Source of the DNA: Rhodobiaceae bacterium
GTDB taxonomy: Bacteria; Pseudomonadota; Alphaproteobacteria; Rhizobiales; TMED25
Direction: 5' to 3'
NCBI GenBank assembly: GCA_018651345.1
Contig: JABIEF010000050.1
Coordinates: 27,895-91,894 of the forward strand
Length of the DNA stretch: 64,000 nt
The notes beneath the pieces were generated by a model that saw nothing but the letters and a program-made list of their open reading frames with translations, was not told the DNA's origin and did no database searches. This document shows positions 39,070 to 41,508 of the stretch, one piece after another. Both the position numbers and the translations under genes were made by a program. Within the stretch, counting starts at the first letter, position 1; the number at the start of each line of letters is the position of its first letter.

Positions 39070-40125
39070 TTATAATATTTTTTTGTAGGGCAGGCTATTT
39101 TCTAATTCTTCAAGATTTGAATTGTTTAGCTCACGTTCTTTTGTCAAATAATCCTTAATAACAGAATGTATCTCAGGAATATTCATGTAATGCGCTGAAT
39201 AAGTTAAAATAGGCACATAACCTCTTGATATTTTATGGTAACCGCCAGCTCCAGCTTCAATATATTGTAATTTATTTCTAATAGCATATTCAATAGCCTG
39301 ATAGAAACACAGCTCAAAATGTAAAAAACTATCATGTTTCTCACCGCCCCAGTATCTCCCGTAGAGTCTATCTTCTCCAATTATATGCAAACTTGAAGCA
39401 ATATAATTCAATCCATAGCGAGCTAATACCAACATCATTTTACTAGACATTTTTTCTGCAATTAAATTAAAGAATTCCCTGCTCAAATAAGCGTGTCCCC
39501 ATTTCCTATTACAGGTATCTTTGTAGAAGTTATAGAAAATATCAAGGTATTCTTCTGTAATATTTTTTCCTGATATTATTTCTATTTTGATGTCATTGTT
39601 TTCAACGTGTTTCCTTTCTTTACGTATCATTTTTCTTTTTCTGGAAGTTAGGTTTTCTAAAAAATTATCAAATGTCTGGTAGTTATTATTTTCCCATCTG
39701 AATTGTTGGCTTGTTCTTTGCAAGAAATTATTTGTTTGCAAAATATCTATCTCATTTTTTGTACAGAATGTGATATGAGCACTTGATAAACGCTCATTAT
39801 TTACAATAGATTTTATTGATAAAACTAATTGATTTATATCTGCATTATTTGCATCTTCGCTTAATAATAACTTGTTACTTGTAACAGGAGTGAATGGGAT
39901 GCAGGACTGTAATTTAGGATAATAATTTAGGCCAAGTTTGTCATAGAATTCAGCCCATGATTGATCAAATACATACTCACCATATGAATGTGATTTTATA
40001 TAAGAAGGCACGATTCCTAAGATTTTATTTTCATTATTCTTCATTATTATATGCTGTGTATTCCAACCTGTTTCCTTCGATACGCAGCCTGATTCTTCCA
40101 GCGAGCTTATAAATTCATATGACAT
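39070..40125 (-). CDS. FemAB-like/DUF482 (COG3146) GNAT-fold protein. True start probably upstream of the first ATG.
   Basis: 351 aa from the first ATG. The family-typical N-terminus (W...NPF.S.EF..LEESG) begins about 16 codons upstream of that ATG, in an open frame with no ATG/GTG/TTG (open to 40230). See findings. Confidence 0.8.
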   Translation of the reverse strand: MSYEFISSLEESGCVSKETGWNTQHIIMKNNENKILGIVPSYIKSHSYGEYVFDQSWAEFYDKLGLNYYPKLQSCIPFTPVTSNKLLLSEDANNADINQLVLSIKSIVNNERLSSAHITFCTKNEIDILQTNNFLQRTSQQFRWENNNYQTFDNFLENLTSRKRKMIRKERKHVENNDIKIEIISGKNITEEYLDIFYNFYKDTCNRKWGHAYLSREFFNLIAEKMSSKMMLVLARYGLNYIASSLHIIGEDRLYGRYWGGEKHDSFLHFELCFYQAIEYAIRNKLQYIEAGAGGYHKISRGYVPILTYSAHYMNIPEIHSVIKDYLTKERELNNSNLEELENSLPYKKIL

Positions 40126-40233
40126 GAATGGATTTTTAATTTTTAACCGATTCCATTCGACAGCTTCTATATTAGAAGCGCTATCTTCTATTGTAATTTT
40201 ATTAATTGTAATATTTTTTTCCTTAATTTTTTA

Positions 40234-40446
40234 TCATAGAATTTCAAATATTGCGTCAATTTCAACAGAGGCGTCAAGGGGTAGGGAATGGCAACTTATA
40301 GCTTACCATCAACAATTGCTAGCCGCCCTGATATAAATAATAAATTTCCTGATATATTGTAAGGCCTTATAAAGGCCGATAGATTTTTGAGAAATAGGTA
40401 ATTTAATTCCTTTTTTTTCTAATTTTTTTACTATTCTATCTGACAT
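40234..40446 (-). pseudogene. decayed RidA/YjgF-family gene (frameshift plus large internal deletion)
   Basis: Minus-strand translation gives MSDRIVKKLEKKGIKLPISQKSIGLYKALQY. A +1 shift gives SGNLLFISGRLAIVDGKL*. A third frame gives AISCHSLPLDASVEIDAIFEIL*. Only the N- and C-terminal blocks of a ~150-aa RidA protein remain. Confidence 0.7.
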
Positions 40447-40531
40447 AAAAATTTACTTTTCTTTGCTCTTGGTAATTTTATTAAATATTAATTATTTTAT
40501 AGGTATTTTAAAATATATTTTATATCTGTTT

Positions 40532-40576
40532 GTATTATTATACAAATATCTAAAATATATATTTGTATAATAATAC
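40532..40576. promoter_or_regulatory. 16-bp perfect inverted repeat with 13-bp spacer upstream of divK
   Basis: GTATTATTATACAAAT at 40532-40547 and ATTTGTATAATAATAC at 40561-40576 are exact reverse complements, 52 nt upstream of the divK ATG. Confidence 0.55.
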
Positions 40577-40628
40577 CATTTAGATAACCCGTGCTATGAA
40601 ATATTAACTTAAATTAAATGAAAATTAG

Positions 40629-41003
40629 ATGTCTATAAAAAATAGAAAAGTTCTTATTGTTGAAGATAATGAACTTAACATGAAACTATTTAACGATCTT
40701 TTAGTTACAATAGATTGCGAGGTAATACAATGCTTAGAGTCTCTTGCTGCTTTTAATCTCATACAAGTTAATATGCCAAATTTAATACTTATGGATATAC
40801 AATTACCAAAAATATCTGGTCTTGATATTATAAAGTGGGTTAAAGAAGACAGCAGTTTATCTCATATCCCTATTATAGCAATAACAGCTTTTGCCCTCCA
40901 AGAGGATAAAGATAAAATTCTTGCCTTAGGATGTGAAGGTTACATGTCCAAACCGATATCAATGCAACCTTTCTTAGATAAAGTTAATGAATATTTAGGT
41001 TAA
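40629..41003 (+). CDS. divK: single-domain response regulator, DivK-like
   Basis: 124-aa receiver-only protein. KVLIVEDNELNMKLF...LILMDIQLP.ISGL...KW.KED...HIP..A.TAFA...SKPIS closely follows my recollection of Caulobacter DivK. Confidence 0.75.
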   Translation: MSIKNRKVLIVEDNELNMKLFNDLLVTIDCEVIQCLESLAAFNLIQVNMPNLILMDIQLPKISGLDIIKWVKEDSSLSHIPIIAITAFALQEDKDKILALGCEGYMSKPISMQPFLDKVNEYLG

Positions 41004-41063
41004 AATTAAGAATTTTATATTTAATTAAATAAAAAGTTTTTATTTTAAACCTTATGTATTATA

Positions 41064-41093
41064 TTGCATCTAGAAATTTATTTTTTTTATAAA
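41064..41093 (+). promoter_or_regulatory. candidate promoter of the GC-rich RNA element
   Basis: TTGCAT at 41064-41069, an 18-nt spacer, then TATAAA at 41088-41093. This would start transcription at about 41097-41101, the base of helix P1. Confidence 0.35.
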
Positions 41094-41096
41094 TTT

Positions 41097-41240
41097 AATA
41101 ACCAACTTCTGTTTTTAAGGGTTTCCCTACGGAGTTGCTCAGGTCCGCCGCATCTCCTGGGTCCGTGGGGTTTAGGGTTGGTTGTTTGTAATTGTACATG
41201 GCCTCCTCCATAAGAAGATTGCATGCAACCAGCCAACTAT
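41097..41240 (+). ncRNA. candidate structured small RNA, unclassified (GC-rich island with CCUCCUCC motif)
   Basis: Helices 41097-41106/41177-41186 (10 bp), 41125-41133/41162-41170 (9 bp) and 41138-41143/41156-41161 (6 bp). Three G.U pairs fit the plus strand only. An alternative pairing is 41177-41184/41230-41237. CCTCCTCC lies at 41202-41209. Confidence 0.4.
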
Positions 41241-41276
41241 TTCAATTATAAATTGAGGTTCATAATTTAAAGAAAA

Positions 41277-41444
41277 TTATTTAATTTTTGTTTCTTTGAA
41301 TTCAACGTGTTTTCTTGCAACTGGGTCATATTTTTTTACAACAAATTTCTCAGTTAATGTTCTTGAATTCTTTTTTGTTACATAAAAATATCCAGTACCT
41401 GCGGTACTTTCTAATTTAATTTTAATGCTTGCTGCTTTAGCCAT
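41277..41444 (-). CDS. rpmG: 50S ribosomal protein L33 (non-zinc form)
   Basis: Hand translation gives [55 protein letters not shown] (55 aa). Absent from the ORF track, which lists nothing this short. Confidence 0.92.
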
Positions 41445-41508
41445 TATTATATCCACATTTAATTTAACTAATTATATGTAATAAAGTAGATTGCCTATAT
41501 ATGTCAAG

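Follow-up and report, generated by a model that had tools for sequence, protein, structure and literature searches.

A plus-strand EcpR1-family small RNA gene between divK and rpmG in an AT-rich, uncultured marine alphaproteobacterium

A G+C-rich element of roughly 120 nucleotides (nt) lies between divK and the convergent gene rpmG in a 64,000-nt stretch of contig JABIEF010000050.1, filed as Rhodobiaceae bacterium (this whole stretch is hereafter the window), and it is very probably the ecpR1 gene, encoding a trans-acting base-pairing small RNA (sRNA) of the EcpR1/Atu_C6/SmelC291 family (RF02500). Its family membership, its plus-strand orientation, its covarying structure and its conserved locus were all shown in the present analysis. 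The whole window was scanned against Rfam 15 (4227 families, curated thresholds), which returned three tRNAs and one further match, RF02500 (Atu_C6, EcpR1); the latter reached 72.6 bits, above the gathering score of 60 (E = 3.4e-8), and covered model positions 1-113 of 113. The block UGCUCAGGUCCGCCGCAUCUCCUGGGUCC agrees with the RF02500 consensus letter for letter, and a clade covariance model built solely from AT-rich marine sequences (R1) gave the window element 110.5 bits. When positions 40950-41350 were scanned at E <= 10, only RF02500 and two chance-level matches were returned. An earlier note on this DNA, made from the sequence alone, had described the element as an unclassified, orphan sRNA, a description that has to be withdrawn given a score above the curated threshold and a published EcpR1 locus. 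The same note had proposed an Rfam scan and had stated that a confident match to a known family would remove the novelty; such a match was found and, by that measure, the novelty is removed. The element already belongs to a described, curated family, is nameable by a routine Rfam search and is of low novelty. Signal recognition particle (SRP) RNA and transfer-messenger RNA (tmRNA), which had both been excluded by eye, and other housekeeping RNAs are ruled out, as no Rfam match of that kind was obtained at the element. The features of the RNA are as follows (SL1 and SL2, stem-loops 1 and 2; bp, base pairs; MFE, minimum free energy).

41122..41239, plus strand: EcpR1 (Atu_C6, RF02500) core, comprising SL1, SL2 and a short tail (Rfam match)
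41125..41170, plus strand: SL1, with a lower stem 41125-41132/41163-41170 (8 bp) and an upper stem 41137-41143/41156-41162 (7 bp), in the MFE fold
41144..41155, plus strand: SL1 loop UCCGCCGCAUCU, 12 nt, the presumed mRNA-pairing seed
41176..41234, plus strand: SL2, with basal (41176-41185/41225-41234), middle (41187-41193/41217-41223) and apical (41198-41201/41208-41211) helices
41202..41207, plus strand: SL2 apical loop CCUCCU, anti-Shine-Dalgarno-like, inside the conserved GGCCUCCUCC

The composition and folding of the element had been largely recognized by the earlier note. The central island (41122-41235) is 53% G+C, compared with 14% and 17% in the flanking spacer. On the plus strand, positions 41095-41262 fold at -54.8 kcal/mol (z = -3.48), with 0 of 200 dinucleotide shuffles as good, while the minus strand folds at -35.6 kcal/mol (z = +0.11); only the plus strand thus folds better than its shuffles, in agreement with the proposal of a plus-strand structured RNA. 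Two of the proposed helices, P2 and P3, and the 12-nt loop that they close are present in the MFE fold, with 8 bp and 7 bp, and correspond to the two tiers of SL1, whose mean pair probability in the ensemble is 0.96. SL1 was also predicted by RNAalifold from a sequence-only alignment of 41 sequences, and its helices 1 and 2 are 98-99% paired over 53 distinct sequences. Sinorhizobium meliloti EcpR1 has the very same loop, UCCGCCGCAUCU, which is invariant in 41 homologues that were selected by the exact motif, and CAGGUCCGCCGCAUCUCCUGG is the same in the window and in the other homologues, as the published definition of the family demands. Of three G.U pairs that had been cited in favor of the plus strand, two (41128/41167 and 41139/41160) hold up and are found again in relatives, while 41099/41184 falls in P1, a weak helix considered further below. 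In addition, two adjacent SL1 pairs alternate U.G/A-U with U-A/G.U across relatives, an exchange feasible on the plus strand only.

SL2 has a predicted stability of -26.4 kcal/mol and a basal-stem pair probability of 0.99, and AUGG-CCUCCU-CCAU at 41198-41211 holds the C-rich motif in a hairpin loop, as had been described. The SL2 motif GGCCTCCTC is nearly invariant among homologues, and the Rfam alignment carries GGCCUCCUC in the SL2 loop; the stem sequences are unrelated between lineages, with CCUCCU(C) always apical. The only clear exceptions to the CCUCCUC motif are L064 (GGUCUCCUC) and two contigs of 60% G+C (L092:8983-9089, minus strand; L103:623-729, plus strand), both of which carry the SL1 insertion of the AT-rich clade (GAGUUGC) and the SL2 motif AGCCUCUUCC instead of GGCCUCCUC.

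Homologues were collected from one genome per GTDB species, anchored on divK, and the counts given here are those of the matches listed. The exact 12-nt loop was detected 3' of divK in the two AT-rich genomes, as well as in at least 22 GC-rich loci from Hyphomicrobiales, Parvibaculaceae and Rhodobiaceae. The AT-rich copies share a one-base insertion (GGAGTTGCTCAGG), and a metagenome scan for this variant yielded 20 contigs, 17 of them at 30-36% G+C. Metagenome and genome matches together place the AT-rich copies in at least five sub-lineages.

Sub-lineage A: the window, L095 and L107
Sub-lineage B: OCS116 single-amplified genome type
Sub-lineage C: L012 type
Sub-lineage D: L094, a Tara Oceans scaffold
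Sub-lineage E: L106

These sub-lineages are deeply diverged: the TopA proteins of B-E share no more than 47-55% identity with their sub-lineage A counterpart. Model R1 found full-length matches at the same locus in at least 54 loci ranging from 30% to 72% G+C, including those of Devosia, Pelagibacterium and Hyphomicrobium, all three without the exact 12-mer, and those of Parvibaculum and Rhodobiaceae. It found none in the listed divK loci of Caulobacterales, Sphingomonadales, Emcibacter and Pacificispira, and the Rfam model agrees at its curated threshold; this absence from other orders holds for the sampled divK loci and not for whole genomes. The distribution fits the literature, in which the family is Rhizobiales-wide and probably ancestral to the order (PMC3927594; PMC7143759). 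A G+C-rich SL1 block of ~45 nt is invariant over genomes from 30% to 72% G+C, as already noted for the family.

The structure is conserved by compensatory change, as the comparison of homologues suggested by the earlier note confirmed. When each of the 41 distinct exact-motif sequences is folded alone, SL1 and a long SL2 form in every case. In a covariance-model alignment of 53 distinct sequences (A4), 94.7% of cells were paired compared with 40-50% when the partners were slid, a percentage inflated because A4 is fitted to the model; 22 of 30 pairs had changed on both sides, including 12/12 pairs of SL2 helices 3 and 4, and the covariation score was 0.40 compared with 0.04-0.08 in slid controls, with 0 of 500 shuffles reaching the observed values. 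Because of that fitting, the count was repeated on a sequence-only alignment of the AT-rich clade (A2), in which 96.3% of cells were paired (30-50% when slid), the covariation score was 0.139 (0.006-0.058 in slid controls) and 3 of 30 pairs had changed on both sides; the A2 sequences are closer to one another than those of A4, and double changes are fewer. In a MAFFT-only alignment of the 41 homologues, SL1 was recovered and RNAalifold gave no SL2 consensus, because the length-variable SL2 is scrambled there; SL2 was instead resolved by per-sequence folds and by the covariance-model alignment.

The element is held in a 273-nt spacer between the stop codons of its two flanking genes.

40629..41003, plus strand: divK, upstream flank; single-domain cell-cycle response regulator, 124 amino acids (aa), Pfam PF00072
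41277..41456, minus strand: rpmG, convergent, downstream; ribosomal protein L33, Pfam PF00471; 55 aa with the ATG at 41444 or 59 aa with the GTG at 41456

One source names the product of the first gene "cell cycle response regulator DivK", and among the matches listed it is 52-59% identical to DivK of Caulobacterales and Hyphomicrobiales. The gene rpmG directly follows the sRNA in nearly all homologous loci. Published ecpR1 lies between the divK-pleD operon and rpmG (PMC4414408), and the order found here, divK (plus), sRNA (plus) and rpmG (minus), agrees with it except for pleD.

The host is an uncultured marine lineage of ~30-34% G+C. The window matches marine and environmental metagenome contigs as well as the NCBI metagenome-assembled genome (MAG) GCA_018702455.1, and NCBI files proteins identical to the window DivK under "Rhodobiaceae bacterium", a family of Hyphomicrobiales. 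A cluster look-up recovered the exact protein for DivK only, and not for TopA or the FemAB-like protein of the window. Among the matches listed, the closest DivK came from a single-cell genome of the OCS116 cluster (67% identity, locus 33% G+C), which NCBI places in Alphaproteobacteria incertae sedis, and the next from a "Hyphomicrobiales bacterium" MAG (65% identity, locus 31% G+C).

Beside the inflated pairing percentage of A4, several observations weigh against the assignment to ecpR1. First, no pleD separates divK from the sRNA in the window or in any AT-rich marine sub-lineage, so that the locus here is a reduced form of the EcpR1 locus. This was determined by comparing window positions 41004-41121, L011, L012 and L091-L107 with L016, L029, L043, L082, L085, L088 and L092; the GC-rich Hyphomicrobiales and Parvibaculum carry a second receiver-domain gene at the pleD position, with a gap of ~1.5 kb, and L098 is also without pleD between divK and the sRNA. 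It looks as if pleD was lost from the locus in the AT-rich lineages, a reading that covers the locus itself. Second, the RF02500 scores of the AT-rich clade lie near the threshold (61.7-73.5 bits; 73.5 bits for L095 and 72.0 bits for L107 among the sister contigs). The Tara Oceans copy at its divK-rpmG locus (L094:9817-9934, plus strand) reached 126 bits with R1 yet fell below the RF02500 gathering score, and two Hyphomicrobium copies were also below it (L086 and L059 are listed beside L094); the other AT-rich copies exceed the threshold by only 2-13 bits. Some marine copies therefore stay unannotated. Third, the promoter consensus scan did not flag TTGCAT-N18-TATAAA, which is a consensus-like match only and was missed because TATAAA lacks the final T, and the terminator scan gave no clear intrinsic terminator after SL2. 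Fourth, expression, stress induction, transcript ends and targets in this host are drawn by homology only. At a target, the complement of the SL1 loop would be expected to be GAUGCGGCGG-like. A search of the window for the 12-mer complement with <= 2 mismatches returned one chance-level match, inside rpoC and on the wrong strand; among 65 translation-initiation regions compared with the SL1 seed, the best duplex (-15.0 kcal/mol) was equalled by 29% of shuffled queries; and 215 kb of related AT-rich DNA held no perfect seed complement of >= 9 nt and fewer 8-mers than shuffled seeds. These target searches are uninformative, because gcrA and dnaA of the lineage lie outside the DNA searched.

The known biology of the family gives these features their context. 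EcpR1 is also known as SmelC291, SmrC10, Sra33 and Atu_C6, and occurs in S. meliloti and other Rhizobiales. The family is defined by two stem-loops, with UCCGCCGCAUCU in the SL1 loop and C16-G36 identical in all members, and by an SL2 with a variable stem and a "less conserved motif UCCUCG" in its loop (PMC4414408). In S. meliloti, the SL1 loop motif is needed for function and pairs with the gcrA and dnaA mRNAs (PMC4414408), far upstream of the start codon in gcrA and at the ribosome-binding site in dnaA, which lowers the expression of both (PMC4414408; PMC7143759). Stationary phase and stress induce the gene by way of guanosine tetraphosphate (ppGpp), its overproduction causes elongated cells with extra genome copies, its deletion lowers competitiveness, and EcpR1 slows the cell cycle under stress (PMC4414408; PMC7143759). 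The window element shares the two-hairpin design of this family: its SL1 loop UCCGCCGCAUCU and the upper stem are unchanged, its SL2 varies in the stem and carries UCCUC in the loop, its position is likewise downstream of divK and convergent with rpmG, and, if the predicted promoter is used, it has a 5' leader of ~20-30 nt. It differs in its host family, which lies outside the five that the literature lists, and in the missing pleD of its locus; in the internal loop of SL1, where a one-base insertion gives GAGUUGC instead of GAGUGC; in an A/U-rich SL2 whose tight loop of 6 nt, CCUCCU, is closed by G-C pairs and whose motif is UCCUCC rather than UCCUCG; and in having no obvious GC-rich terminator hairpin and a near-threshold Rfam score. 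What is mildly new is an EcpR1 host in an AT-rich streamlined marine lineage outside those five families, together with the locus form without pleD and the near-threshold Rfam scores.

EcpR1 transcripts are independent and about 100-170 nt long. By analogy, a promoter of its own within the divK-rpmG spacer would drive plus-strand transcription of the window RNA, with a start probably near 41100, and the RNA would fold into two hairpins. SL1 would display its invariant 12-nt loop UCCGCCGCAUCU for pairing with G+C-rich sites in target (cell-cycle) mRNAs, and SL2 would act as a stabilizing hairpin that may aid termination and presents the conserved CCUCCU loop. Two candidate signals frame this transcript.

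41064..41093, plus strand: candidate sigma-70-like promoter TTGCAT-N18-TATAAA, inferred from sequence
41242..41256, no strand assigned: a weak A/U hairpin (UCAAUU-AUA-AAUUGA) of the MFE fold, within the 42-nt spacer that precedes the stop codon of rpmG

The promoter-like hexamers proposed by the earlier note are found exactly at their place, although they went unflagged in the consensus scan. With a start near 41100, the leader would be ~22 nt long, similar to the 29-nt leader that processing leaves in S. meliloti. The hairpin at 41242-41256 has a counterpart in L095 and none in L107, and may serve as a bidirectional terminator. The origin of the transcript could also be different: the RNA may be excised from divK read-through transcripts, as an EcpR1 homologue without its own promoter, i.e., an sRNA processed from the 3' untranslated region of divK. 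We regard this as rather improbable. The sRNA does start close behind divK on the same strand (59-213 nt after its stop codon in the AT-rich lineages; 59-366 nt when L098 is included), the scan found no terminator-like site between the two, and the dominant 5' end of S. meliloti EcpR1 itself arises by ribonucleolytic processing (PMC4414408). Against read-through, ecpR1 is transcribed as a unit of its own in S. meliloti, where its sigma-70 promoter is functional (PMC4414408), and promoter-like hexamers recur in the relatives: in sub-lineage A both are kept (TTGCAC in L095, TTGCAT in L107 and TATAAA in both, with a spacer that varies), and in sub-lineage B TATAAT-like boxes lie 12-18 nt 5' of SL1.

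A riboswitch-like or attenuator function, in which the 5' leader (P1) and SL2 would alternate, is very unlikely. P1 is a genuine, perfect 10-bp complementarity between 41097-41106 and 41177-41186, as had been claimed; its 3' strand is shared with SL2, and L095 and L107 both retain the CCAAC box of the leader. It is nevertheless weak (~-7 to -8 kcal/mol compared with -26.4 kcal/mol for SL2), excludes SL2, has an ensemble probability near 0 and is restricted to sub-lineage A, the leaders of sub-lineages B-E and of the GC-rich homologues being unrelated. The "alternative" helix invoked by the earlier note for its switch turned out to be the conserved SL2 itself, in a pairing drawn 3 nt out of register. 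Because rpmG is convergent, there is no downstream gene on the plus strand for a switch to regulate, and the 5' leader of S. meliloti EcpR1 is dispensable for the phenotype (PMC4414408).

The last rival, a small protein gene on the minus strand encoding a 34- or 38-aa peptide behind GGAGGAGG-cc-ATG, is extremely unlikely.

41095..41211, minus strand: open reading frame (ORF) of 38 aa from the ATG at 41211 or 34 aa from the ATG at 41199, judged non-coding

The ORF, a strong Shine-Dalgarno-like GGAGGAGG and a well-spaced ATG all exist in the window; the earlier note was correct on the ATG at 41199, on the length of 34 codons, on the peptide and on its count of G/C-ending codons (17 of 34), and one gene caller placed a 45-aa ORF in the divK-rpmG spacer of contig L002. 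Yet the minus-strand GGAGGAGG is the reverse complement of the conserved RNA motif CCUCCUCC, and the ATG is restricted to sub-lineage A, the sister lineages having CCAAATTTAG or CCAAGTAAGT after the motif, where the frame runs into a stop within a few codons. A minus-strand ORF spanning SL1 is lacking in 9 of the 16 listed AT-rich variants, and in the GC-rich homologues minus-strand ORFs occur in all three frames. Conservation tracks pairing and not codons, with SL1 invariant at every position and SL2 varying by compensatory pairs and indels, and the G+C content at third codon positions is 0.50 compared with 0.15-0.27 in neighboring genes. The earlier preference for RNA over coding is thus borne out, the ORF not being conserved and the RNA pairing being so, and on comparative grounds the minus-strand ORF is read as an antisense by-product of the RNA gene and not as a gene. 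A repeat or mobile-element remnant was ruled out, as the core is present once in the window.

The C-rich SL2 loop had also been likened to alpha-r14/cuckoo sRNAs (CcsR, NfeR1), which consist of repeated hairpins with CCUCCUCCC loops. The likeness extends to an anti-Shine-Dalgarno-like CCUCCUC exposed in a hairpin loop; unlike in those RNAs, the window motif is single and placed in SL2, the genomic context is different, and the experimentally defined seed of the EcpR1 family is the unrelated SL1 loop. Membership was rejected on the single CCUCCU loop and on the Rfam scan, in which no such family appeared at E <= 10. A further S. meliloti cell-cycle sRNA, GspR (SmelC775), targets ctrA and cspA5 via different domains and is probably restricted to Sinorhizobium (PMC7143759). 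GspR and EcpR1 are both stress- or growth-phase-induced trans-acting sRNAs that repress a cell-cycle master regulator, and GspR has no sequence or locus relationship to the window element.

Other observations concern the surroundings of the locus. An unusually long spacer (~500 nt; 40126-40628) lies 5' of divK, with a G+C bump of 0.41 at 40250-40349; it shows 78-85% nucleotide identity in L095, is conserved in part in L107 and gave no Rfam match at the gathering threshold. Gene callers place a 45/49-aa ORF there (40309-40446, minus strand), which is probably non-coding because the L095 similarity splits over two frames. At ~40214, a T-run of 7 T in the window and L006 and of 8 T in L003 alters the called length of a FemAB-like/acetyltransferase gene (39070-40125, minus strand), for which 351, 402 and 324 aa were called in near-identical contigs; this difference may stem from an indel, either in the assembly or in the population, or may reflect a phase-variable start. 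The start of the window carries three tRNA genes (263-344, 374-444 and 1795-1867), followed within positions 1-35000 by an apparent tuf / secE-nusG / rplKAJL / rpoBC / rpsLG-fusA / S10-spc-alpha cluster, recognized by ORF sizes and order, which would be usable as a set of phylogenetic markers to place the lineage.

Collectively, these copies widen the range of the EcpR1 family to streamlined, A/T-rich marine alphaproteobacteria that are uncultured and whose locus lacks pleD. Standard annotation under-calls EcpR1 in marine metagenomes, a gap that would be closed if AT-rich sequences joined the seed alignment. At 30% G+C, a genome contains few G+C-rich 12-mers, and complete genomes of the AT-rich lineages would for this reason be unusually clean material for predicting the conserved EcpR1 target set. 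The ~45-nt SL1 block is essentially unchanged over lineages whose TopA is only ~50% identical, and it is conceivable, if doubtful, that EcpR1 has been retained as a core regulator in streamlined marine bacterioplankton (OCS116-like/"Rhodobiaceae" MAGs, ~30% G+C), with SL1 nearly unchanged despite A/T pressure. If so, EcpR1 would be among the very few trans-acting sRNAs conserved at the level of an order or beyond, SL1 would be constrained beyond its 12-nt seed, e.g., by several essential targets or a protein partner, and the CCUCCU loop of SL2 would be a second functional site.

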